Shown here: one piece after another, positions 3,904-53,219 of the stretch
Layout: every line of letters starts with the position of its first letter
How positions within the stretch are numbered: position 1 is the first letter of the stretch
Assembly (NCBI GenBank): GCA_021325275.1
Contig: JAJPHL010000035.1
Location: 54,916 to 118,915, forward strand
Direction: 5' to 3'
Origin: Terriglobia bacterium
GTDB taxonomy: Bacteria; Acidobacteriota; Terriglobia; JAJPHL01
DNA: 64,000 nt
The notes under the pieces: model-generated
The model's input: the letters and a program-made list of their open reading frames with translations, nothing else
Databases searched by the model: none
What the model was told of the DNA's origin: nothing
Translations under genes and position numbers: made by a program

Positions 3904-4089
3904 CTATTTCCCTCCGATGTAACGAAAGTAACTGGCGAAGTGCGAGCGATACGCGCCGGGATTATCGCGCACCGTGTTCGGCACGTCTTTCAGCTCGTTC
4001 ACCTTGTTCAGGCTCCAGCCGCGATATTGCGCCGTGCCCGCGAGCAAGAGCGTCAGCAGTCCGTACGCGAGATACAAAGGATGTCGCAT
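3904..4089 (-). CDS. Small hypothetical membrane protein (61 aa, one N-terminal TM helix)
   Basis: Reading frame is tightly packed between the neighbouring genes with 4-nt spacing to each. N-terminal hydrophobic helix LYLAYGLLTLLLAGTA. No family recognised. Confidence 0.4.
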   Translation of the reverse strand: MRHPLYLAYGLLTLLLAGTAQYRGWSLNKVNELKDVPNTVRDNPGAYRSHFASYFRYIGGK

Positions 4090-5453
4090 CAGTCGTCATC
4101 TCCTGAAGAAGAAAACACGCTGGCTGCGCCGCGGCCCGAGTAATCGCTCTCCATCCAGCGATGTCCTTCGAACGCCGCCGAGCGCCATTGCACAATGATA
4201 GGCGGAATCAGCAGTGCGAAGAAAGCGAGAAGGAAAAACGTGAGATTGGGCACGTCGCGGCGCAAGCGCAGATGATAGTGCAAATCGTAGGCGGCGTCGG
4301 GCGTTTCCGGCTCCACGCGCAAGTAGTAGCGGCCCGGCGGCACCGAGGGAATCGTGGCGGTGTCGCTCTTGCTTCCCTCCGAACCGTCGGAATCGGTGTA
4401 GTAGCTGACCTCGCGTCCGAAGTCGTACGCCTTGTTGTTGTCCTGATCGATCAGCGCGAAATTGAAGTATGCCCAGTTGTTGTAGATGTCGGTGTCGAGG
4501 TTCAACTCCACGTTCGACGTGCGTCCGGTCAGTTCAAATGGTTCGGTGACGAACGAGGGCTCGCCCGCGCCGCGGCGGAACGAGTAGTCGTGCGAGAAAA
4601 TTTCCTTGTTCGACGAAAGCGCAATGGAGCCGATAGCCGCCACGAGCAGTGCCAACAGCAGCAATCCGAAACTTCCCCAAATTCCTTTGGCGCGCGCCGC
4701 GTAGGGATTCGGTTGATCCGCGAAGATACCGGCGGGCGGCGGCAATCGCGGAATCTTGAACGCTTGTTCGATCTCCGAGGCGGCCATGTACGTGCTCAGC
4801 GACCACGTGATTTCCTCCGCGCCTGCTTCGGCGGTGGTGGCTTCCGAGGACAACATGTGCGGCGGCGCGATGTAATCGCGAACCTCGGCGACGTCGCCGG
4901 AGTGCACTTCCCACGGAAATTCGCCGACCACGAAGGTGGTCTGTGCTTGCGCCGTTTGGAAATGCGTGTAGGTTTCGCCTTGCAGGATCACCGCGGGCTT
5001 GCCCATGTGACTCGATCCCAGGGGAAGCGCCTGCACCGTGCGCACGAAATTCCAGTGACCTTGATAGTGCGTCAGGTAGCGGAATCCCTGATACGGATTG
5101 AACAGCAGATGCTCGCTCCAGGAGTACGCCACGCCGTCCACTTCGATGGTGCGCACTTGCGCGCCGATCACTTCCCAAATTTGCCCGGCCATTCGCCCGC
5201 GGCTGCCGAGCGGTACGAGCGGCTGAAAGCGCATCTTGCTTTCGAATTGCGAGAGGACTTGGTAGTTTTCGTCCTTCGCGTCGAGGACGGAATGGCAACT
5301 GTCGCAGACGATGGACAAGCTGTGTCCGGCGGCGCGCATCGTGAGCGACGCGCCGCAGTTCGGGCAATTCAGCGCGCGCGTGAGTGCCACAGCTCCGGAT
5401 GGTCCGCCGGGCCCATCCAGCCGCACGTCGGCTTTTGATTCGCCCGTTGGCAT
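4089..5453 (-). CDS. DUF4178-family protein (YdjH-like) with N-terminal CxxC...CxxC zinc ribbon, a central TM helix and a C-terminal extension
   Basis: Zinc ribbon LNCPNCGASL...IVCDSCHSVLD followed by the DUF4178-like beta-rich region (QIWEVIGAQVRTIEVDGVAYSWSEHLLFNP), and a TM helix GSFGLLLLALLVAAIGSIAL. Confidence 0.6.
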   Translation of the reverse strand: MPTGESKADVRLDGPGGPSGAVALTRALNCPNCGASLTMRAAGHSLSIVCDSCHSVLDAKDENYQVLSQFESKMRFQPLVPLGSRGRMAGQIWEVIGAQVRTIEVDGVAYSWSEHLLFNPYQGFRYLTHYQGHWNFVRTVQALPLGSSHMGKPAVILQGETYTHFQTAQAQTTFVVGEFPWEVHSGDVAEVRDYIAPPHMLSSEATTAEAGAEEITWSLSTYMAASEIEQAFKIPRLPPPAGIFADQPNPYAARAKGIWGSFGLLLLALLVAAIGSIALSSNKEIFSHDYSFRRGAGEPSFVTEPFELTGRTSNVELNLDTDIYNNWAYFNFALIDQDNNKAYDFGREVSYYTDSDGSEGSKSDTATIPSVPPGRYYLRVEPETPDAAYDLHYHLRLRRDVPNLTFFLLAFFALLIPPIIVQWRSAAFEGHRWMESDYSGRGAASVFSSSGDDD

Positions 5454-5460
5454 CAGTTCG

Positions 5461-6096
5461 TCACCATTTTTCGAACAACCGAACGTTCTTCAACTGCAAC
5501 GCATCGTACTCGATCGATTCGCCGACGAAGAGCAGCGGTGTCGATTCGCTGTAGTCGATGGTGGCGAAATGCGCGTCGGGCGACTTCAAATCCGCAAACG
5601 TCACTTTCGATTTGTCCCAGTATTCGAACGGCAATTCACCTTGCACTCCGGCGTAGTTCGCCACCGTGATTGTCGTCACCGAGTATTGTTGATTGAACCA
5701 AGCGAACGTTTGCATCGGCTGGAGATTGCCGGCGGGCGGCAGCGGACTCGGCGGCGCGTGCTGAAAGGAAATCGCGAAGTCGAGTTGCGCATCCGAAAGC
5801 CAACCAGACGTCCCGTCGTTGAACGCGAGATGCCACTCATTCCATCCGCCGCGCTCGTATTCATAAATAATTCGGCCGACGACCACGAATGCTTTTTGCC
5901 GGTAGACTCCCTCGGCGCCGATCTGGATCGGCGACGCGTCGAGGGGAAGATCGGCGATTTCGCCGACCTTTTGCCAATTCACATCGCGACGCACGATGAT
6001 CGATTTGCAGTAAGGGCAAGTGGTCTGCACCGCCGCCGACCAAAGGAATTCCACCGGCGCGCCGCAGTTCGGGCAATTGGCCGTTTTCGCGGGCAT
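5461..6096 (-). CDS. DUF4178-family protein (second, shorter paralog) with N-terminal zinc ribbon
   Basis: Start at MPAKTANCPNCGAP (6096). Zinc ribbon ANCPNCGAP...TCPYCKS, then a DUF4178-like region (FVVVGRIIYEYERGGWNEWHLAFNDGTSGWL). The track ORF extends to 6318 through a frame without a convincing start. Confidence 0.6.
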   Translation of the reverse strand: MPAKTANCPNCGAPVEFLWSAAVQTTCPYCKSIIVRRDVNWQKVGEIADLPLDASPIQIGAEGVYRQKAFVVVGRIIYEYERGGWNEWHLAFNDGTSGWLSDAQLDFAISFQHAPPSPLPPAGNLQPMQTFAWFNQQYSVTTITVANYAGVQGELPFEYWDKSKVTFADLKSPDAHFATIDYSESTPLLFVGESIEYDALQLKNVRLFEKW

Positions 6097-6101
6097 ACGT
6101 G

Positions 6102-6449
6102 TTACGGTTCGTACGGACGATCGACGTGGCGCACGCGCACATCGGCGGCGGCCACGGCGTCGCGCAAGGCCGCGGTAAAATCGCCTTCCGGCCGCGGCTT
6201 GCAGCAAAAAAGATTCAGGCACAGTGTGCCGTACTCGGGAAACGTGTGGCACGCGAGATGCGATTCCGCGAGCAGCCACAGTCCGGTGATGCCGCCGGGT
6301 CCCGCGAAGCGATGCCACGTGGCGTCTTCAATGGGATGCAGCGACATTTCTTCCACGATGCGGCGAAAGAGCGCTTGCATGCGCGCGAGATCGCACAACG
6401 CCGCAGGATCGCAGCCGTACGCTTCAATGATCCATTCGCATCCGCTCAT
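6102..6449 (-). CDS. speH: S-adenosylmethionine decarboxylase proenzyme, pyruvoyl-dependent (SpeH/SpeD class 1)
   Basis: 115 aa with the self-processing motif LLAESHLACHTFPE; the E|S cleavage site generates the pyruvoyl group. The YGC...L..L motif near the N-terminus is typical of small archaeal/bacterial AdoMetDC. Confidence 0.8.
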   Translation of the reverse strand: MSGCEWIIEAYGCDPAALCDLARMQALFRRIVEEMSLHPIEDATWHRFAGPGGITGLWLLAESHLACHTFPEYGTLCLNLFCCKPRPEGDFTAALRDAVAAADVRVRHVDRPYEP

Positions 6450-6476
6450 CGCGCCTTGATTTTAGCCTGCTTTAAC

Positions 6477-7505
6477 CTAACCCTGAGCTGCCCCGCACTC
6501 CGGACAGAATTTCGACTTGCGTGGAATCGGCTTGCCGCACTCCATGCAGAATTTCGTTTCCGCACTCGCCGCCGAGCCGCCACCGCTTGGCGCGACCGGC
6601 GGTGCCGCTCCCGCGGGCGCCGTGGGTGCGCTTCCTCCGCCATCCGGCGGATGAATCGCTTGCATCATCGTTTGCGCCATCGCGAGTCCCGCGCCCAATC
6701 CCGCGCCGATGCCCGCCGCGCCTCCGCCTTCGTTCGCCGCGGCGATCGGCATCGATTGCGCCACTTGAAATTGCGTGTACTTGCCCATGTCGCCGACCAT
6801 GCGCATGCCGATGCCTTCGTCGAGGCGCTTCTGCAACTCTTCCGGCAGTGAAAGATTCTCCACGACAAACGTGTCGAGCGCCAAACCCATTTCCTGCATC
6901 CACGGCTTCAGTTGCTCGGCGATTTTCTGGGCCACCAGTCCTTGATTCGCGGCCATGTCGAGGAACGGCACATTGGATCCGCCGAACGCGTCGGTCATCT
7001 TGGCGACGATCGTGTTGCGAAGCTGACCTTCCAGATCGGCCACGCTGTAGGTGTCGCGTGTGCCGCTGACTTTGGTATGAAACGTCCGCGCGTCGGCGAT
7101 TTTGTAGGAGTAAATGCCGAAAGCGCGCACGCGCACCGCGCCAAAATCCTTGTCGCGGATGGTGATGGGCTGCTGCGTGCCCCAGTGCTGATTCGTTTGC
7201 AAGCGCGTGGAGAAGAAGTACACGTCCGTCTTGAACGGCGACTTGAACATCTTGTCCCAATTCATCAAGTCGGTGAGGATGGGCATGTTTTGCGTGGTGA
7301 GTTTGTATGTTCCCGGCCCGTACACATCGGCCATGCGGCCTTCGTTCACCAGCGCCGCCACTTCCGACTCGCGCACGATCAGCATGCCGCCGTTCTGGAT
7401 TTCCATATCCTCCACAGGGAAGCGCCAGGCAAGCACGCCCTCGGTCGCTTCGGTCCACTGAAGAATGTCGATGAATTGTTTCTTGAGGAAATCCTTGATG
7501 GACAT
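6477..7505 (-). CDS. SPFH/band-7 family protein (PF13421-like, YdjI-like) with C-terminal Cys4 zinc ribbon
   Basis: N-terminus MSIKDFLKKQFIDILQWTE...VLAWRFP is characteristic of Band_7_1 SPFH proteins. Gly/Ala-rich linker, then CMECGKPIPRKSKFCPECG. Confidence 0.7.
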   Translation of the reverse strand: MSIKDFLKKQFIDILQWTEATEGVLAWRFPVEDMEIQNGGMLIVRESEVAALVNEGRMADVYGPGTYKLTTQNMPILTDLMNWDKMFKSPFKTDVYFFSTRLQTNQHWGTQQPITIRDKDFGAVRVRAFGIYSYKIADARTFHTKVSGTRDTYSVADLEGQLRNTIVAKMTDAFGGSNVPFLDMAANQGLVAQKIAEQLKPWMQEMGLALDTFVVENLSLPEELQKRLDEGIGMRMVGDMGKYTQFQVAQSMPIAAANEGGGAAGIGAGLGAGLAMAQTMMQAIHPPDGGGSAPTAPAGAAPPVAPSGGGSAASAETKFCMECGKPIPRKSKFCPECGAAQG

Positions 7506-7573
7506 GACGGCCTCCAAGGGCAGTATATACCGCCCGGTTTCAGTTACCGATGTCTGTTACGGAGGCGCGACGG

Positions 7574-40165: not shown

Positions 40166-40678
40166 TTAGTGGTTGTAGCGGGCTTTCGAGGAGTTCACGG
40201 CTCGCTTGGCTTCCATGTCCGCCTCGCGGCGGCGAATGGTTTCGCGCTTGTCCCACTCTTTCTTGCCCTTGGCGACGGCCACTTCGGCCTTGATTCGTCC
40301 CCGCTTCAAGTATACCCGCAACGGAATCAAGGTCACGCCGCCCTCGCGCGTGGTTCCCTGCAGGCGATGAAGCTGCGCCTTGTGGACCAGCAGTTTTCTG
40401 GTCCGGAGCGCTTCGTGATTCATGTAATTTCCGTGGCTATAGGGGCTGATGTTGCAGTTCATCAGCCACAATTCGCCGCCCTTGAGCTGCGCGTAGGCGT
40501 CCACCAGACTCACGCGGCCGTTCCGCGCCGACTTCACTTCTGTGCCGGTGAGCACGATGCCCGCTTCGAAGCGATCCTGGAAGAAATAGTCGTGGTGGGC
40601 GCGCCGATTCACTCCGAGGTCGCGCTCGGGGGCGTCTCCCTTGGCCTTTTCTGCTTTGGAATCATGTGGTTTGCTCAT
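40166..40678 (-). CDS. smpB: SsrA-binding protein
   Basis: NRRAHHDYF...GIVLTGTEVKS...NISPY; the basic C-terminal tail is typical. Confidence 0.9.
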   Translation of the reverse strand: MSKPHDSKAEKAKGDAPERDLGVNRRAHHDYFFQDRFEAGIVLTGTEVKSARNGRVSLVDAYAQLKGGELWLMNCNISPYSHGNYMNHEALRTRKLLVHKAQLHRLQGTTREGGVTLIPLRVYLKRGRIKAEVAVAKGKKEWDKRETIRRREADMEAKRAVNSSKARYNH

Positions 40679-40752: not shown

Positions 40753-43293
40753 ATGTTAACACAGTCTTTTTGCGCCCTCGTCGCGCCCCGCCATTTCCAT
40801 CAGCGACTCGCCCGAACCCGTATTGTGGTCGCTTTCATTCTCGCGTTTCTCATGGCCGCTCCTCCCGCACCCGCGTCGGTGTTTGGAGGCGCGGGCAGCG
40901 GCGAATTCAAGGCCGCACAGAAGGCCGAAGCCGCCGGCAATCTCGACCTTGCCACCGAGCTTTATCAAAAAGCCTTCGAAAAAGACCGCAAGAACATGAA
41001 CTACGAAACGGCCTTGCGCCGCACACGCTTTGCGGCGGGCATGAAGCACGTGGACAACGGTCACAAGCTGCGCGACCAGAACAAACTGGACGAAGCGCTC
41101 GAGGAATTCCGCAAAGCGCGGTTGATCGATCCTTCTACCTCGATCAGCGAGCAGGAAATCAACCGGACGCTGCAAATGATCGAGACGCTGAAGGCCAACG
41201 CCGCCGCCGAACCGCTGACGCCGCAGCAAAAAGAGAAAAAAGAATACGAGATTCGCATGCAGCGCGCCGAAGGGCCGCCGGAGTTGAAGCCGTTTTCGCG
41301 CTCGCCCATCAACGTGCGCATGACCAACGAGTCGAAAACAATTTTCGAGACCATCGGGCGGTTGGCCGGCGTCAACGTGCTCACCGATCCCGATTATCAG
41401 AGTCGCCGGATCACGGTGGACCTGGCGAACAGCACGCTGGAAGACGCCCTCGACTACGCCAGCATTCTCTCGAAAACAAAGTGGGCGCCGCTGAACGAAA
41501 ACACCATCGTGATCTATCAGGACAGTCGCGCGCGCGACCATGATCCGCTGATCATGAAGACGTTCTACCTCACCAACACCGTGAAGGACACCGAGATCAC
41601 CGAAATCACGCAGGTGTTGCGCAACATGCTTGAGAACATCAAGCTGATGCAGGTGAATTCGCAGAACGCCATCGTGATCCGCGCCACGCCGGACCAAATG
41701 GCGGTGGCGGAAAAAATTATCGCCGATATCGACAAGGCGAAGTCGGAAGTGGTGGTCGATGTAACGGTGTTGGCCGTGGAGCGCGACTTGAGCAAAACGC
41801 TCGGCATCACGCCCGTTTCCGGCGGCGCGCCGGGACTCACGCTGCCGGCCTCGTTCACCGGCGGCATCGCGGGCGCGGCCGCTTCCACGGTGGGCACGAC
41901 CACCGGCAACACAACCACCACCCCAACGACGGGCACGGGAACCACCGGCAGCACCACCGGAAACGTGATTCCCTTAAGCCAGCTTCCGCATCTCAGCATC
42001 AATCAGTGGAGCACCACGCTGCCCGGCGCGTCGCTCACCGCGATCCTGAGCGATGGTCACACCAAGATTCTGCAGAATCCGCAAGTGCGCGCCTCGGATG
42101 GACAAACCGCGAAACTCCGCGTGGGCGAACGCGTGCCGATCGCCACGGGAACTTTTTCCACCGGCATCGTCGCCACGGGCGGATTGCCCGCCGCACAAAC
42201 GTCGTTCCAGTACACCGACGTCGGCGTGATCATGGAAATTACGCCGCGCGTCAACGGAATCCATGAAGTGTCGTTGAAGCTGGTGATCGAAATTTCCGCA
42301 GTGAACTCCTACGTCACGATCGGCGGCGTGCAACAGCCGGTGATCGGGCAGCGCCGCGTGGAACAGGATATTCGCCTGAAGGAAGGCGAGATCAACGTGC
42401 TCGGCGGAATTATCCAGGATCAAACGTCGATCACCAAGGCGGGCGTACCGCTCTTGGGATCGCTGCCGTTGATCGGACACTTCTTCTCGCAGGATCAAAC
42501 CACGGTCTCGCAAAGTGAAGTGCTGATCGTGCTGACGCCGCACATCGTGCGCAGCGCGGATGTTTCCGAGCTGAACCTGCGCGGCATCGACACCGGCACC
42601 GCGACGAACACGCAAGTGCGCTATCGCGGCGTCGCGATGCAGGAAACGGCGCCGGGTGCGCCACCTACGAATACACCAAGTTCCGCGCCGAATGCGCCGG
42701 CAGCGACAGGCACCACGTCTCCATTGTCTGGCGCGCCGTCCGGCGCAGTGCCTGGCGCGCCGGCCACGGGTGGTGGTGCCGCGGTTGGTGCAGCGCCGAC
42801 GCCGGGCGTGTCGGCGGTGCCTGGTGCAGCGGCCAATCCAACAGCTCCGGCGGCGGTGGATGCGTCAACAGGTCCGATGCAGTTGCGTTTCCGCGAAAAC
42901 AATGTGAACGCCGTGGTTGGTACGAGCTTCTCGCTGAATCTTGAATTGGTGAATGCGCAAGACGTGAACGCCGTGCCGTTCCAGTTGCGCTTCGATCCGA
43001 AAGTGCTGAAGTTGCTGACCACCGTCTCCGGCGACTTCCTCGACAAAGACGGCCAGCGCTCCAGCATGGTCCCGACCATCGACGCCAACACAGGCACCGG
43101 CATGATCGCGCTGACGCGTCCACCGACTGCGCCGGGTGTTTCCGGCACGGGACGTCTGGTAACGCTGACCTTCGAGCCGATCGCCGCCGGTTCGGCGTCG
43201 GTGCAGGTGTTCGGCGGGACGGCGCGAGGTCCCGGGCATGAACCGAAACCATTGGCGGCCTCCGCGGCGTCCATTACAGTGAAAGACAAATGA
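40753..43293 (+). CDS. Secretin (GspD/PilQ superfamily) with N-terminal TPR-like region and C-terminal cohesin-like beta-sandwich domain
   Basis: Secretin core (ILQNPQVRASDGQTAKLRVGERVPI, VIMEITPRVNGIHEVSLKLVIEIS, VPLLGSLPLIGHFFSQDQT...VLIVLTPHIV). Thr/Gly-rich linker and a Pro/Ala-rich spacer. C-terminal ~150 aa resemble type-I cohesin (MQLRFRENNVNAVVGTSFSLNLELVNAQDVNAVPFQLRFDPKVLKL...GTGRLVTLTFEPIAAGSASV). Confidence 0.7.
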   Translation: MLTQSFCALVAPRHFHQRLARTRIVVAFILAFLMAAPPAPASVFGGAGSGEFKAAQKAEAAGNLDLATELYQKAFEKDRKNMNYETALRRTRFAAGMKHVDNGHKLRDQNKLDEALEEFRKARLIDPSTSISEQEINRTLQMIETLKANAAAEPLTPQQKEKKEYEIRMQRAEGPPELKPFSRSPINVRMTNESKTIFETIGRLAGVNVLTDPDYQSRRITVDLANSTLEDALDYASILSKTKWAPLNENTIVIYQDSRARDHDPLIMKTFYLTNTVKDTEITEITQVLRNMLENIKLMQVNSQNAIVIRATPDQMAVAEKIIADIDKAKSEVVVDVTVLAVERDLSKTLGITPVSGGAPGLTLPASFTGGIAGAAASTVGTTTGNTTTTPTTGTGTTGSTTGNVIPLSQLPHLSINQWSTTLPGASLTAILSDGHTKILQNPQVRASDGQTAKLRVGERVPIATGTFSTGIVATGGLPAAQTSFQYTDVGVIMEITPRVNGIHEVSLKLVIEISAVNSYVTIGGVQQPVIGQRRVEQDIRLKEGEINVLGGIIQDQTSITKAGVPLLGSLPLIGHFFSQDQTTVSQSEVLIVLTPHIVRSADVSELNLRGIDTGTATNTQVRYRGVAMQETAPGAPPTNTPSSAPNAPAATGTTSPLSGAPSGAVPGAPATGGGAAVGAAPTPGVSAVPGAAANPTAPAAVDASTGPMQLRFRENNVNAVVGTSFSLNLELVNAQDVNAVPFQLRFDPKVLKLLTTVSGDFLDKDGQRSSMVPTIDANTGTGMIALTRPPTAPGVSGTGRLVTLTFEPIAAGSASVQVFGGTARGPGHEPKPLAASAASITVKDK

Positions 43294-43772
43294 TGCGGCT
43301 GGCTTTTCAATCGCGGCAAGCGAGCGAGCGCGGCATGTCGCTCGTGGAGTTGATCGTGTCCTGCACGATCCTCCTGGTGCTAACGATGCTGGCGCTGCCT
43401 CTGGCGCGCGTGCGCATCAAGCGCTCGAAGGAAGCGGAACTGCGCTACGATCTGCGCGAAATGCGCGAGGCGATCAATCGCTACAAGGACGCTTCCGATC
43501 GCGGATTGATTCAGGTGAAGGTCGGCACGGAGGGTTATCCGCCGGATTTGGAAACGCTGGTGAAGGGCGTCGACGTCGTGGGTCAGGTGGACAAGAAATT
43601 CCGCTTTCTGCGGCGCATTCCCATGGACCCCATGACCCATTCCACCGAGTGGGGCATGCGCTCGATGCAGGACGATCCCACGTCCAGCTCGTTTGGCGGA
43701 CAAAACGTTTTCGATGTATTCACGAAGAGTCAGGACAAGGCGCTCGATGGAACGAAATATGCAGACTGGTAA
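43290..43772 (+). CDS. Type IV pilin / type II pseudopilin-like protein (prepilin N-terminal methylation motif)
   Basis: Leader then G|MSLVELIVSCTILLVLTMLAL (a G/FTLIE-type variant with Glu at +5). Overlaps the secretin stop by 4 nt. Confidence 0.55.
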   Translation: MMRLAFQSRQASERGMSLVELIVSCTILLVLTMLALPLARVRIKRSKEAELRYDLREMREAINRYKDASDRGLIQVKVGTEGYPPDLETLVKGVDVVGQVDKKFRFLRRIPMDPMTHSTEWGMRSMQDDPTSSSFGGQNVFDVFTKSQDKALDGTKYADW

Positions 43773-44157
43773 CGCGCGGCGCGGCTTCACGATCCTCGAA
43801 CTGGTGGTCGTCATGGCGATCATCGTGACGCTGGTGGCCATTGGTGTGCCCACGTACACCAAGTCGATCATCCGCGCGCGCGAGGCCGTGCTGCACGATC
43901 AGCTCTTCACCATGCGTCAAATGATCGACGAATACACAATGGACAAACAGCAAGCGCCGCAGTCGCTCGACGACCTGGTTTCCGAAGGCTATTTGCGCGA
44001 AATCCCCAAGGATCCGATTACGAACTCGCGTTCGTCGTGGAAAATCGACATGGAGGATTCTCTGAAAGCCGCCGACCAAACACAGCCCGGCATGGTGGAC
44101 GTTCACAGCGGCGCGACCGGCACGTCCCTCGACGGGACGGCGTATTCCACTTGGTAG
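43759..44157 (+). CDS. Type IV pilin / pseudopilin-like protein (canonical GFTILE prepilin motif)
   Basis: MQTGNARRG|FTILELVVVMAIIVTLVAIGVP. Start chosen at the Met giving a short leader; the track ORF extends upstream to 43693 (TTG). Confidence 0.6.
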   Translation: MQTGNARRGFTILELVVVMAIIVTLVAIGVPTYTKSIIRAREAVLHDQLFTMRQMIDEYTMDKQQAPQSLDDLVSEGYLREIPKDPITNSRSSWKIDMEDSLKAADQTQPGMVDVHSGATGTSLDGTAYSTW

Positions 44158-44194: not shown

Positions 44195-46093
44195 CTAGTC
44201 TTCCAGCATCCGCCGGATACGCATCAATTCCCCCAGCGACCAAGCTTGGAACGGACATCCCGCCGGTGTGTGCGGCGCGTCGCCGTCGGCAATTTCCGGA
44301 ACGTGACCGAGGCCGTATTCTTCGAGTCGCGCTCGCAGCGGTTCGAAGAAGCGCACGCGTGCTTCGTTCTTCGCCGCGGCCGAATCAAAAGCCGAACTTC
44401 GGCTGGATGGGCCTGCCGATTCGTTGCGCACGCGCAGCCACGCTTCCACGAACGCTCCCATGAGCCACGGCCACGCGGTGCCATTGTGGTATGCGGCGTC
44501 GCGATCGGCGGGCGATCCGGTGTAGTGCGGCGCGTATCCGGGCGATCCGGGCGCGAGCGTGCGCAATCCCAGCGGCGTGAGCAGGCGTTTTTCTACGGCG
44601 TCCACCACGCGACGCGCCGGCGGGCCCGAGAGAATCGCCAACGGCAATCCGCCGACGGCGAAAATCTGATTCGGCCGGAACGATTCGTCCGCGGGATCGG
44701 CGACGTCCAGCAAATATCCGCGCGACTCGCTCCAGAATTTCGCGAAGAACGCCGCGCACCCGCGCTCGAATTCGTCGGTGCGTCCGGCGAGTTTCAACGC
44801 GTTCAACCACAGTGCTTGAATTTCCACGGGCTTGCCGACACGCGGCGTCATCGCGTGGCCGTTGGCGCGCGCGTCCATCCATGTAAGCTGCGATCCCGGC
44901 TCGCCGGCGGCCAACAATCCGTCGGCATCCATGCGGATTCCAAAGCGCGTGCCCGCGGTGTAGCCGTCGAGGATCGCGTGGGCCGCGGCGACGATGCGCT
45001 TCTTGTCTTCCCGGCCCAAAGCCAAGCGGCGAATCGTCTCAAAGGCGGCGATCACGAACCACAGCGACGCGTCGACGGAGTTGTACTCGGGAGCGCTCCC
45101 GAAATCGGCGAAGCGATTCGGCAGCATGCCTTGCGAAACGCATCCTGACCACTCGCGCAGGATCGCGGCAGCGACTTTGGGTCCGCACAAACCGCGCACG
45201 GAAATGAATGTGTCGCGCCCCCAGTCGGTGAACCAGGGATAGCCCGCGACAATCGTTTGCCCCTTACCGCGGCGGACCACGTAGGCGCGCGCCGCGCGAT
45301 CCATCGCGTCGCGCAACGGCCGGCGCCGACGCGCTTCCGACACCATGATCACGCGATGGGCGGGCGCGTTGCGATCGGTGGATAGCGTGATGAAGGAATC
45401 GGTGGACGTTAGGTCGAACCACAACGCGCCCGGCACAGCGAGGTCTTCGGTGGCATCGAGTCCGCGATGCGCTTCTTGAGTGTAGAAGAAGTGGCGATAC
45501 CAATTGGGCGCGTGTTCGTAAGACCCGTTGGTCCGCACGCAAATTTCCGGCACGCCGTCATAGGGGCGCCAAACGAGCAGCGCGCCGGGCTTCCCGGCAT
45601 TTTCGGTGCGCTCGGGATCGAAGCGAAACGCGGGATTCTCTTTGTGCAGCGCGTGATAGTCGCGTCCGGAAAACAGCAGACGTACGCACAATCGCGCCGG
45701 ACTCTTTGACCCGCTGGTCGCCGCGCCCATGAGTCGCCAGCGCATCGTGACCGTCGGCGAGTTCTGCACGGCGACGATTTCGTGTTCCACGCGCGTGCCA
45801 TCGTCAAGGCGATAGATCCAGCGCGGCCAGGGGCGATAGTGAAACTCGCGAATGCGCTGCGCGCCGTCGGGATGCACCACGTCACCGGCATAGCGCTGCG
45901 AGGAAATCGGATACGTGCCGGCGCTGGTGGTTACCGACGCTTCCAGTCCGTTCACCAGCACGAATCGGCCGGTCGGAGGAGTTGTGGCCGCCAGCAGCAG
46001 CGCGTGATAGCGCCGCGTGCGGATTCCGCAAACCGTGCCGGAGGCGAATCCGCCAAGACCATCGGTTTCCAGCCACTCGGAGTCAGGATGCAT
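44195..46093 (-). CDS. Glycogen debranching enzyme-family protein (amylo-alpha-1,6-glucosidase, GDE_N_bis + GDE_C / six-hairpin glycosidase)
   Basis: WLETDGLGGFASGT...RRYHALL N-domain. Catalytic-domain motif YPWFTDWGRDTFISVRGL, LWFVIAAFE. Confidence 0.8.
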   Translation of the reverse strand: MHPDSEWLETDGLGGFASGTVCGIRTRRYHALLLAATTPPTGRFVLVNGLEASVTTSAGTYPISSQRYAGDVVHPDGAQRIREFHYRPWPRWIYRLDDGTRVEHEIVAVQNSPTVTMRWRLMGAATSGSKSPARLCVRLLFSGRDYHALHKENPAFRFDPERTENAGKPGALLVWRPYDGVPEICVRTNGSYEHAPNWYRHFFYTQEAHRGLDATEDLAVPGALWFDLTSTDSFITLSTDRNAPAHRVIMVSEARRRRPLRDAMDRAARAYVVRRGKGQTIVAGYPWFTDWGRDTFISVRGLCGPKVAAAILREWSGCVSQGMLPNRFADFGSAPEYNSVDASLWFVIAAFETIRRLALGREDKKRIVAAAHAILDGYTAGTRFGIRMDADGLLAAGEPGSQLTWMDARANGHAMTPRVGKPVEIQALWLNALKLAGRTDEFERGCAAFFAKFWSESRGYLLDVADPADESFRPNQIFAVGGLPLAILSGPPARRVVDAVEKRLLTPLGLRTLAPGSPGYAPHYTGSPADRDAAYHNGTAWPWLMGAFVEAWLRVRNESAGPSSRSSAFDSAAAKNEARVRFFEPLRARLEEYGLGHVPEIADGDAPHTPAGCPFQAWSLGELMRIRRMLED

Positions 46094-50964: not shown

Positions 50965-51825
50965 ATGGCAGACGATTACGTAAAACCCAATGAACTGATG
51001 GCCGAAGCCTTGGCCGCCGCGGAGCGTAAAGCCGCGTTGCCGGTGCGCGATCTTCTGCTGCGCGGCGCACTGGCCGGCGCTTTTCTCGGCTATGCGACGT
51101 CGCTGGTATTCGTGGTGGTATCGCAGGGCGTCGCGCCGATCGTCGGCGCGATTCTTTTTCCGGTGGGCTTCGTGATTCTTGTGTTGCTGGGCTTGGAACT
51201 CGCCACCGGAAATTTTGCGATCCTCACGCAAGGGTGTTTGTCGGGGCGAGTGCGCGGCTCCGGTTTATTGCGCAATTGGGCGTGGGTCTATCTCGGCAAT
51301 CTGCTGGGCAGCATGTTCTACGCCGCGCTCTTCTATGCGGCGATCACGAGTTTCGGCGCCACCGATGGCGGTCCGCTGGGCGAATTGGTGCGTCAAGCCG
51401 CGCAGAAGAAGACGCTGGCCTATGCCGCGCTCGGCACACGCGGTTGGGCCACGGCATTCGTCAAAGCAATACTCTGCAACTGGATGGTGACACTCGGCAC
51501 GATGCTGGCCTTTGTGTCGCGCTCCACGCTGGGCAAGATCGCCGCGATGTGGCTGCCCATTCTGACGTTCTTCGCGCACGGCTATGAACACTCCATCGTC
51601 AACATGTTCGTGATCCCCGCGGGGATGCTGCTGAAAGCTCCGATCTCGCCGGCCACTTGGTGGCTCTGGAATCAGATTCCCGTGACGTTGGGAAACATCC
51701 TGGGCGGCGCAGTCTTAACGGCATGGGCTTTGCACCTGACCTATCAACAACCCGCGCCGTCGCGATTGGAAAAAACGGAGCTTGCCGCCATCCCGGTGGC
51801 CATCCCACTCTCATCGGAGGAATAA
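50965..51825 (+). CDS. Formate/nitrite transporter (FNT) family channel
   Basis: Six TM segments. FNT signature regions LAGAFLGYATSLV, GLELATGNF, NWMVTLGTMLA, HSIVNMF. Confidence 0.85.
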   Translation: MADDYVKPNELMAEALAAAERKAALPVRDLLLRGALAGAFLGYATSLVFVVVSQGVAPIVGAILFPVGFVILVLLGLELATGNFAILTQGCLSGRVRGSGLLRNWAWVYLGNLLGSMFYAALFYAAITSFGATDGGPLGELVRQAAQKKTLAYAALGTRGWATAFVKAILCNWMVTLGTMLAFVSRSTLGKIAAMWLPILTFFAHGYEHSIVNMFVIPAGMLLKAPISPATWWLWNQIPVTLGNILGGAVLTAWALHLTYQQPAPSRLEKTELAAIPVAIPLSSEE

Positions 51826-51827
51826 TT

Positions 51828-53219
51828 ATGTCCCTACGGCCCGTTCTCTCGCTGGTGGTGTGCGCGACGTGCTTGATTGTCGCGGTTGGAGCGTCCGCCC
51901 AGGATTCCGCCGTCGTTCTGGCGCGTATCCTGGCCGAAAAAGGAATCATCACCAAGAGCGACTTGGCGCGGGTCGAGTCGGCCGGCGGCGACAAGTCGCA
52001 AGTCTTGACGCAAGTCGCAGCTTCCGCTCTCACGCAGAAGGAGAAGCCCCCGGCGGCGGTCGCTGCTTCCTCGGCGGCATCCTCCCCGGCTGAGAAAACC
52101 GCAAACGGGCCGATCACTTTTTACGGGTCAATCCTCTGGAACTCTTACCTGAACACTTCGCTCACCAACAACGCCGATGTTCCGCTGTTTGCTGGAAAGC
52201 AAGGGTCGGACGCGGCCGGCAATGACAAGAATTTCGGCATGACAGTCCGGCAATCGCGCCTGGGCTTGCGCTTTAACGGACCTGAAGTGGCCGGCGCGAA
52301 GTCGAGCGCCGTTGTGGAAACCGATTTCTTCGGCGGTCAAGCGTCGCTGGCCAACGGCATCGCCATGGATCTTGTTCGGCTGCGTCTGGCGTATGGAAGA
52401 TTGGATTGGACCAGCGCATCGCTCGTCGCCGGACAAGATTGGTCGGTGTTCGCGCCGCTCAACCCGACGTCATTGGCAAGTTTTGCGATTCCCGCGATGG
52501 CGGCCTCGGGCAATCCCTGGAGCAGGACGCCGCAAGTGCGCGGCGAATGGCGGGACAAATCGCTTCTGTGGCAGATGGCCGCCACCGATCCCAACATCGG
52601 CGACTATCCGGCCGCTTTCGCCACTTCGCGCACGCCGGCGATCGGCGAACGTGGACGCTTGCCTGCATTCGATTCCCGGTTGGCTTGGACGCACCGCATG
52701 AATGGACAACAAGCTTCACTCGGCGTGAGCTCGCACTATAGCCGCGGCAAAAACGCCGGCGCGATCGGCACGCGCAATGTGGAACAAGGTGTCGATTCCT
52801 GGGGAGTGGCGCTCGATTACATTGTTCCCTTGCATCGGCGATTGATATTGTCGGGCGAGATCTTCGAGGGCCGCGCCCTGGGCGCCTTCAGCGTCGGCCT
52901 GGGACAAGGCGTATTGGCCGTGGGAACCCCCGGCGCGCACGGCGTGGGAGCGGCCGGCGGGTGGAGTCAGGCGCAAATCCAACTGTCGCCGCGCTGGCAA
53001 TGGAACACGTCGTATGGTTTGGAGTCGGACGAAGCCGCCAATCTGACGGCGGGCGCCCGGAACCGCAACTCAACGCTGATGACCAACTTGATGTACAAGC
53101 TCTCGCCGCAATTCACCGTAGCGGGAGAATACCGGCGGTTGTTCACCGATTTCTACAATCAGCAACCGTTCAACGAACGCGGCGATCATTTCAACCTGGC
53201 GGTCGGGTACATTTTCTAA
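51828..53219 (+). CDS. Outer-membrane beta-barrel porin (putative anion-selective), signal peptide
   Basis: Signal peptide MSLRPVLSLVVCATCLIVAVGASAQ after a GGAGG RBS 3 nt past the FNT stop. Alternating amphipathic beta-strands and an aromatic C-terminal residue (GYIF). Confidence 0.5.
   Translation: MSLRPVLSLVVCATCLIVAVGASAQDSAVVLARILAEKGIITKSDLARVESAGGDKSQVLTQVAASALTQKEKPPAAVAASSAASSPAEKTANGPITFYGSILWNSYLNTSLTNNADVPLFAGKQGSDAAGNDKNFGMTVRQSRLGLRFNGPEVAGAKSSAVVETDFFGGQASLANGIAMDLVRLRLAYGRLDWTSASLVAGQDWSVFAPLNPTSLASFAIPAMAASGNPWSRTPQVRGEWRDKSLLWQMAATDPNIGDYPAAFATSRTPAIGERGRLPAFDSRLAWTHRMNGQQASLGVSSHYSRGKNAGAIGTRNVEQGVDSWGVALDYIVPLHRRLILSGEIFEGRALGAFSVGLGQGVLAVGTPGAHGVGAAGGWSQAQIQLSPRWQWNTSYGLESDEAANLTAGARNRNSTLMTNLMYKLSPQFTVAGEYRRLFTDFYNQQPFNERGDHFNLAVGYIF

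Follow-up and report, generated by a model that had tools for sequence, protein, structure and literature searches.

The subject of this text is a secretin operon at positions 40753-44157 of a 64-kb window of Terriglobia bacterium DNA (contig JAJPHL010000035.1; the window is the whole stretch of 64,000 nucleotides (nt) that was analysed). The operon consists of three genes in the same orientation, namely a secretin gene and, behind it, the genes of two prepilin-type proteins. The secretin carries a tetratricopeptide repeat (TPR) domain at its N-terminal end, and its C-terminal domain is, by sequence and by predicted fold, a true cohesin. The TGA of the secretin gene and the ATG of the first pseudopilin gene overlap as ATGA, and the ATG of the second pseudopilin gene (43759) lies 14 nt inside the end of the first. 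Because the stop and start codons overlap in this way, the three genes are a tightly coupled operon. An earlier sequence-only reading of this DNA had already proposed a secretin with two prepilin-motif proteins in one operon, and this is borne out by the open reading frames (ORFs), the Pfam Secretin and N_methyl matches and the overlapping genes. The identical secretin of 846 amino acids (aa), P0001, is present in public collections, and the nearest genome is a Terriglobia metagenome-assembled genome (MAG) with 83% identity to the window secretin. The features of the operon are as follows (AF2 stands for AlphaFold2).

40753-43293, + strand: secretin gene, 846 aa, in the order TPR, N0, N1/N3, secretin core, linker, cohesin (ORF, Pfam and NCBIfam matches)
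40753-40878, + strand: signal peptide, aa 1-42, with a basic n-region, the hydrophobic core IVVAFILAFLMAA and a cleavage-type end APA|S (read from the sequence)
40897-41271, + strand: TPR-like helical domain, aa ~49-173, six helices (profile, AF2, Foldseek)
41308-41520, + strand: N0-like periplasmic domain, aa ~186-256 (AF2, Foldseek)
41551-41745, + strand: N1/N3-type ring-building domain, aa ~267-331, Pfam Secretin_N (sub-threshold Pfam, AF2, Foldseek, profile)
41746-42567, + strand: secretin core, aa ~332-605, nearest to type II secretion system (T2SS) GspD (Pfam Secretin, phmmer)
41806-41967, + strand: Thr/Gly/Ser-rich low-complexity insert in the secretin domain, aa 352-405 (composition)
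42640-42870, + strand: Pro/Ala/Gly-rich flexible linker, aa ~630-706 (composition)
42871-43290, + strand: cohesin module, aa ~707-846 (Pfam, profile against PDB, AF2, Foldseek)
43290-43772, + strand: pseudopilin 1, 160 aa, with the prepilin motif G|MSLVE, a GspG-like body and a C-terminal LDGTxYxxW (N_methyl, profile)
43759-44157, + strand: pseudopilin 2, 132 aa, with the prepilin motif G|FTILE, a paralogue of pseudopilin 1 (N_methyl, TIGR01710)

The Pfam family Cohesin (PF00963) matches aa 717-815 of the secretin with 25.2 bits, above its gathering score of 24.1. When a cohesin family profile, built from 37 homologous C-termini, was compared with the PDB sequences, the 22 best matches were all cohesins (best E = 1.7e-8), and the second best of them was 2XDH, a non-cellulosomal cohesin of Archaeoglobus fulgidus. 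AF2, run on the C-terminal alignment, gave an all-beta model with a pLDDT (predicted local distance difference test) score of 96 and a predicted template-modelling (pTM) score of 0.89. In the Foldseek comparison, which the sequence-only reading had named as a check of this domain, the top 50 PDB matches were cohesins only, with template-modelling (TM) scores of 0.66-0.80 and the nine-stranded jelly-roll fold; the leaders were 2XDH and 2VO8, with a TM score of 0.78 to 2XDH and E ~1e-9. The same reading had described a Pro/Ala/Gly-rich spacer followed by a cohesin-like beta-sandwich, and Pfam, profile, AF2 and Foldseek agree with that order, the sandwich being about 140 aa long. Within this cohesin subfamily, certain Gly and Arg positions are invariant, and two loops, G-FLS-DGQ and RPP-GVSG-G, are conserved.

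A word-indexed search with the cohesin profile returned mostly fragments of the same secretin gene. Two seemingly stand-alone cohesin ORFs on long contigs turned out to be frameshift fragments of that gene, and because of this the subfamily is, as far as the sequences retrieved go, found on the secretin alone. An exhaustive search with the cohesin profile found mainly unrelated multi-cohesin proteins of the type IX secretion system (T9SS) and revealed no partner. The nearest cohesins outside the secretin are those of P0195-P0205, which carry between 3 and 13 cohesins in tandem, together with a CarboxypepD_reg domain and, at the C-terminus, a sorting tail for the T9SS; some of these proteins come from Candidatus Desantisbacteria, and they resemble scaffoldin-like surface proteins in non-cellulosomal bacteria. 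Broken gene models were also seen among the relatives. For example, the ortholog in the closest relative (L001:10001-12381, a Terriglobia MAG) is called as a 716-aa secretin (P0004) and a 146-aa cohesin ORF (P0132), which points to a frameshift within the Pro/Ala-rich linker. Loci L094 and L095 are fragmented likewise, and because their adjoining genes are split too, an assembly error is likely there.

The N-terminal part of the secretin begins with an ordinary signal peptide without a lipobox, that is to say, the window protein is not an HxcQ-like liposecretin. Of 120 homologues, 5 (P0040, P0047, P0061, P0082 and P0090; e.g., L011:10001-12271) have the lipobox L[AST][AG]C-P-[KR]-G immediately ahead of the TPR domain; they form a subclade whose members would be lipidated "liposecretins". 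The TPR-like character that the sequence-only reading had ascribed to the N-terminus was borne out: single-sequence Pfam searches gave weak TPR matches, the N-terminal family profile matched consensus TPR (CTPR) proteins in the PDB with E = 3.6e-24, and AF2 (model of aa 44-350) gave six helices with pLDDT >90 over most of the domain, for which Foldseek also found CTPR proteins. Among the 60 best PDB profile matches of the TPR domain, all were generic or designed TPR proteins, and none was PilF, PilW or TadD.

Behind the TPR helices, the AF2 model contains two further domains. The N0-like domain has the topology beta-alpha-beta-beta-alpha-beta-beta and was superposed by Foldseek on the PilQ N0 domain 4AR0 with a root-mean-square deviation of 3.1 over 87 columns. 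The domain that follows is of the N1/N3 type: Secretin_N (PF03958) scores 25.2 bits there, under its cut-off of 28.2, and the family profile matches XcpQ residues 295-339. Together, the two domains match PilQ N0/N1, XcpQ N0-N2 and MxiD/InvG/EscC N0-N1 in Foldseek with E = 5e-6 to 1e-3. Between the TPR domain and the core there are therefore N0 and one N1/N3-type domain, and not the four domains N0-N1-N2-N3 of GspD. The earlier claim that the TPR region takes the place of the usual N0-N3 domains does not hold; in the models, the periplasmic stack of the secretin is cut down to two ring domains, and the TPR domain is added in front of them without replacing them.

The core is that of the secretin superfamily, with Pfam Secretin (PF00263) matching aa 433-600 at 139.5 bits against a gathering score of 27.5 (E = 1.1e-40). 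By sequence it is closest to the T2SS GspD: phmmer against the PDB gave 92 bits for XcpQ (5WLN), 67 for PilQ, 56 for RcpA and 52 for pIV, and the NCBIfam models gave 166.3 bits for GspD (TIGR02517; equivalog cut-off 351.35) and 114.6 bits for PilQ (TIGR02515; cut-off 284.35), both under the cut-off. No AMIN domain was found in the secretin by the Pfam scan. The alignment of the core to XcpQ stops at aa ~602, which corresponds to XcpQ residue 573 of 624, i.e., the start of the S-domain. After the core, the family consensus has a conserved segment of about 25 aa, then the linker and then the cohesin. Family-wide, the linker (the stretch equivalent to aa 625-709) is 21-114 aa long, with a median of 65, and consists of 26% P and 24% A. 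A further low-complexity tract, the Thr/Gly/Ser-rich insert, stands just past the first strand of the secretin domain throughout the family (10-77 aa, median 40; T 31%, G 15%, S 12%); it may serve as a flexible loop or be a tract for glycosylation.

Both small proteins downstream have a class III signal motif with Glu at +5, of the G|FxxxE type, in the forms G|MSLVE and G|FTILE. The N_methyl family, whose gathering score is 21.2, matches pseudopilin 1 with 21.8 bits and pseudopilin 2 with 24.4 bits. The two are paralogues of 31-36% identity, which have the motif RRIPxDPxT and the C-terminal LDGTxYxxW in common; the latter resembles the calcium-site region of GspG. Compared with the PDB, the joint pilin profile found GspG 5WDA as its best match (E = 3e-10), and soluble GspG domains with E ~1e-3 to 8e-3. 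The GspG model TIGR01710 scores 39.8 and 20.9 bits in the two pilins, under its equivalog cut-off of 88.85; for pseudopilin 2 this sub-cut-off match has E = 4e-10. Judged by these profile matches, both downstream genes are GspG-type pseudopilin genes, which bears out the prepilin-motif proteins of the sequence-only reading and gives them a more definite kind. In one related locus (L008:12680-13474), pseudopilin 1 is 264 aa long, owing to an insert of about 110 aa, rich in Gly, Ser and Gln, in the globular domain.

More than 100 full-length homologues of the secretin, with 38-83% identity, have the whole TPR-secretin-cohesin architecture in common, and all the named sources are acidobacterial (Terriglobales, Bryobacteraceae, Koribacter and Acidobacteriaceae). 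In the metagenomes of the Joint Genome Institute (JGI), at least 589 relatives were confirmed among the 600 candidate stretches listed. For the comparison of neighbourhoods, 90 non-redundant loci with flanks of up to 10 kb were used, and a locus was counted only where its flank was sufficient. The match extends into the cohesin in 85 of the 90 loci; where the DNA downstream was long enough (73 loci), the secretin is followed by both pilins in 72; and smpB stands upstream on the opposite strand in all 79 loci with enough upstream DNA, directly adjacent in 76 of them. The gene-call tables of six divergent lineages give the same pattern, usually with a family M17 peptidase beyond smpB. Across the loci, the median identity of the best high-scoring segment pair is 64% and 54% for the pilins, compared with 39% for the secretin. 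That more than 100 full-length homologues keep the whole architecture speaks against chance, and on these sequence comparisons the three-gene module is old, vertically inherited and under selection, and not an accident of one genome. The single locus of the 73 without both pilins downstream (L061:5866-8793) has instead an 850-aa ORF with repeated "GGGTVTSSDGYINCPGTCSHTY"-type modules.

The rest of a secretion or pilus machine is not encoded beside the operon. Practically every credible ORF of the 64-kb window was scanned with Pfam, and no ATPase, platform or prepilin peptidase of a T2SS or type IV pilus (T4P) came to light, the other ORFs being ordinary housekeeping and catabolic genes. That is to say, GspE, GspF, GspC/L/M, minor pseudopilins and a prepilin peptidase, which a T2SS would be expected to have together, are not co-encoded in the neighbourhood of the window operon. 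There is also no pilMNOP adjoining the secretin gene, whose neighbours are smpB and the two pilin genes. In the flanks of about 90 related loci (1.22 Mb), no Walker A motif of the GspE/PilB/PilT type was found by six-frame regular-expression search, and a looser Walker A pattern had no other matches than ABC transporters and, within an integrated element, a VirB11-like gene. Because the motif was not found in the flanks of the related loci either, the separation of the operon from the rest of the machine is a conserved feature. The sequence-only reading had likewise seen no GspE/PilB, GspF/PilC or prepilin peptidase nearby, which the window scans and the related loci uphold, and it had called the secretin an orphan. 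As far as that word means that the other machine genes are absent from the neighbourhood, it is right; as a label it is misleading, since the three-gene module has a fixed, vertically inherited position in the core genome.

The operon is flanked by two genes on the other strand, both as the sequence-only reading had placed them.

40166-40678, - strand: smpB, a divergent conserved neighbour and positional marker, with no functional part (Pfam SmpB)
44195-46093, - strand: GDE-family glycosidase gene, convergent, downstream (Pfam)

The gap between smpB and the secretin gene is 74 nt, and the two are transcribed divergently. A functional link to smpB was considered and dropped, smpB being a conserved positional neighbour on the opposite strand; a link to the GDE gene was dropped as well, since among the related loci it lies downstream in the closest relative only. 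A promoter scan of the locus gave no sigma-70-like site, a terminator scan gave terminator-like sites at background level only, and Rfam and tRNA scans gave no matches near the locus. Elsewhere in the window, two other places were recorded. At 51657-53219 (+ strand), after the genes of a formate/nitrite transporter and a sulfite/nitrite reductase, there is a 520-aa ORF with a coding-like G+C content at third codon positions (GC3) of 0.70 and no Pfam match at E <= 0.01. At 4089-7517 (- strand), two adjoining DUF4178 proteins with zinc-ribbon motifs lie beside a zinc-ribbon SPFH/Band-7 protein and near a membrane protein with a spermidine-synthase domain; this cluster is small and looks conserved.

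The explanation favoured here, to which a probability of roughly 55% is given, is that the operon encodes the outer-membrane module of an Acidobacteriota-specific, T2SS-like (type IV filament) machine, in which the cohesin would provide docking in the periplasm and the TPR domain would have a role in assembly or coupling. To the computed domain identities, operon structure, conservation and distance from machine genes, this explanation adds a periplasmic location, a docking role and a pilotin-like TPR role, which we infer. The ATPase, the inner-membrane platform and the prepilin peptidase would always be encoded elsewhere in the genome, and two protein-interaction modules, the TPR domain and the cohesin, would have been added to a GspD-like pore whose periplasmic stack is short. 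The function of the operon would be a housekeeping one, which fits its fixed position in the core genome.

As for the cohesin, its placement follows from the end of the core. In the solved T2SS secretins, only the rim formed by the beta-lip and the amphipathic helix loop (AHL) enters the outer membrane, while the remainder is periplasmic, including the S-domain, which binds pilotin lipoproteins (PMC6532946). Since the alignment with XcpQ ends at aa ~602, the linker would leave the core at the start of the S-domain, and since that position is periplasmic in the solved structures (PMC6532946), the cohesin would be periplasmic too. It would thus sit on a Pro/Ala-rich tether of about 65 aa, attached where other secretins carry the pilotin-binding S-domain, and 12-15 such cohesins per pore would hang as a tethered periplasmic ring just under the outer membrane. 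The docking site so formed would replace or extend the function of the S-domain, and its partner may be an assembly or anchoring factor, or else a machine component or cargo. As a fallback, the sequence-only reading had thought of an extended periplasmic or extracellular cap; the periplasmic half of that idea is closer to the evidence, the S-domain attachment point being periplasmic in the solved secretins.

As for the TPR domain, which would be lipid-anchored in some lineages, it may act as a built-in assembly, targeting or coupling module. It has been reported that T4P and Tad secretins have the TPR lipoproteins PilF and TadD as their pilotins, and that the TPR groove of TadD binds the tail of its secretin (PMC10499894); HxcQ, as it is cited in PMC12475490, pilots itself through an N-terminal lipid anchor. 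By analogy with these proteins, of which PilF and TadD are of a similar kind to the TPR domain here, a pilotin-like or coupling module built into the secretin would be the simplest reading of the domain.

Several points weigh against the explanation of a periplasmic docking module in a T2SS-like machine. The window secretin scores under the curated cut-offs for GspD, PilQ, MshL and SctC, which makes its assignment to one type of machine provisional. The TPR domain is similar to TPR proteins in general and not specifically to PilF, PilW or TadD, and most homologues, the window protein included, are not lipoproteins. The periplasmic placement of the cohesin is drawn from homologous structures, and the nearest relatives of the cohesin outside the secretin are multi-cohesin proteins with T9SS sorting tails, which are probably extracellular. 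Finally, a regular-expression search for a dockerin-like double calcium loop, which covered neighbourhoods (the window plus 1.2 Mb of flanks) and not whole genomes, found none.

The sequence-only reading had imagined the domain outside the cell at the mouth of the pore, where it would tether dockerin-bearing secreted enzymes in the manner of a cellulosome. Such a display is suggested by the domain being a true cohesin, by its nearest relatives outside the secretin, multi-cohesin proteins with T9SS export tails that are probably surface proteins, and by the Pro/Ala-rich linker, Pro/Ala/Thr-rich linkers being typical of scaffoldins. However, we know of no secretin that exports its own C-terminus, 12-15 linkers passing through the channel would block it, and the window and its flanks gave no dockerin-like motif. 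The surface tether also conflicts with secretin topology, since the linker exits the core at the S-domain position (the end of the XcpQ alignment), which is periplasmic in solved secretins (PMC6532946), and it is considered very unlikely. With the cohesin inside, it might be a periplasmic cargo receptor that captures dockerin-tagged folded exoproteins and feeds them to the pore, that is, a modular secretion signal for the T2SS. A receptor would be suited by the long, flexible linker (median 65 aa), by the up to 12-15 copies expected per pore, as in the homologous 12- to 15-mers, and by the joint conservation of cohesin and pseudopilins; yet the neighbourhoods searched gave no evidence of dockerin-bearing substrates, and the linker is attached to the outer face of the barrel, a long way from the entrance of the vestibule, which makes a receptor for cargo a highly doubtful proposal. 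That the cohesin is a working dockerin receptor in a T2SS pore, with 12-15 per pore which either recruit periplasmic substrates or hold them at the surface, is taken to be quite unlikely.

Two other readings change either the machine or the ligand. The module might serve a type IVa pilus or a DNA-uptake pseudopilus, with the secretin as an analogue of PilQ or HofQ and the pilins ComGC-like. The two periplasmic ring domains (N0 and one N1-type) are as in PilQ and not four as in GspD, and sub-threshold NCBIfam matches connect the secretin with PilQ, MshL and HofQ and the pilins with ComGC and ComGE. Nevertheless, the core scores higher with GspD than with PilQ in both phmmer and NCBIfam, GspG is what the pilins match in their globular parts (5WDA, E = 3e-10; soluble domains ~1e-3), their C-terminal LDGTxYxxW resembles the GspG calcium-site region, and AMIN domains and an adjoining pilMNOP are missing; a pilus or competence function is accordingly thought rather unlikely. 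Alternatively, the cohesin-fold domain may be a carbohydrate-binding or structural beta-sandwich, which would anchor the pore to peptidoglycan or handle exopolysaccharide in place of AMIN or GspAB-type anchoring. The jelly-roll fold resembles that of carbohydrate-binding modules, the secretin is without AMIN domains, and no dockerin partner was found nearby; the sequence and fold searches, however, gave cohesins specifically and no carbohydrate-binding modules. Secretins have lately been implicated in the export of slime and exopolysaccharide (PMC12475490), and a glycan ligand is kept as a possibility, though an unlikely one. The periplasmic docking module of a T2SS-like machine stays the favoured explanation.

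Secretins have been studied in depth, and their accessory contacts, such as pilotins, peptidoglycan anchors and inner-membrane couplers, are normally provided by separate proteins. Here, the pore protein itself bears two generic docking modules as fusions, an arrangement that is fixed throughout an entire class of abundant, little-studied soil bacteria. The identity of the cohesin partner would show how Acidobacteria assemble or load the pore, and would bring the biology of cohesins into the envelope of Gram-negative cells; should the partner be cargo, it would bear on the unsolved question of how the T2SS recognizes its substrates, and if the dockerin-receptor reading were true, the T2SS of a dominant soil phylum would have a targeting or retention signal that is modular and encoded in the sequence. 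In practice, the constant adjacency of smpB is a simple marker by which the operon can be found in metagenomes.

The sequence family itself is not new, its architecture being visible and auto-annotated in databases; several relatives carry the NCBI auto-annotation "cohesin domain-containing protein". Within the literature searched, which left out one review of non-cellulosomal cohesins, no publication on a secretin-cohesin or TPR-secretin-cohesin fusion was found, and to that extent the earlier statement that cohesin-bearing T2SS or T4P secretins are undescribed holds, database auto-annotation apart.

Among the known systems, the best structural matches of the C-terminal domain are the non-cellulosomal cohesins 2XDH of A. 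fulgidus and 2VO8 and 2JH2 of Clostridium perfringens, which, like the window domain, occur singly and outside cellulosomes; they are not part of a secretin or any other outer-membrane channel, as the subfamily of the window is, and this subfamily has conserved loops of its own. PilQ (6VE2, 4AV2; TIGR02515) is alike in its short stack of N0 and N1 and in its secretin core (67 bits), but the window secretin has neither AMIN domains nor pilMNOP neighbours, and PilQ has no C-terminal module. With regard to the N-terminus, the 5 of 120 homologues with a lipobox would combine the N-terminal lipid anchor of HxcQ, as cited in PMC12475490, with the TPR fold of PilF and TadD (PMC10499894); unlike PilF and TadD, the TPR domain of the window is part of the secretin polypeptide and short (about six helices). 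The closest likeness is to GspD (XcpQ, 5WLN; TIGR02517), which gives the best core match and shares an N0 and an N3-type domain with the window secretin, next to which GspG-like pseudopilins are encoded. The window secretin nevertheless lies far under the GspD equivalog cut-off, has two ring domains instead of four, bears an extra TPR domain at its N-terminus and a linker and cohesin at the S-domain position, and among the loci examined its gene never adjoins gspE, gspF or a gsp cluster. In Myxococcus xanthus, GspD is reported to be an essential housekeeping secretin, through which sorted surface proteins are exported and without which slime is not made (PMC12475490; no cohesin is reported for it there), and it is thus a precedent for a core, non-virulence T2SS secretin in a soil bacterium, in keeping with the fixed core-genome position of the operon.

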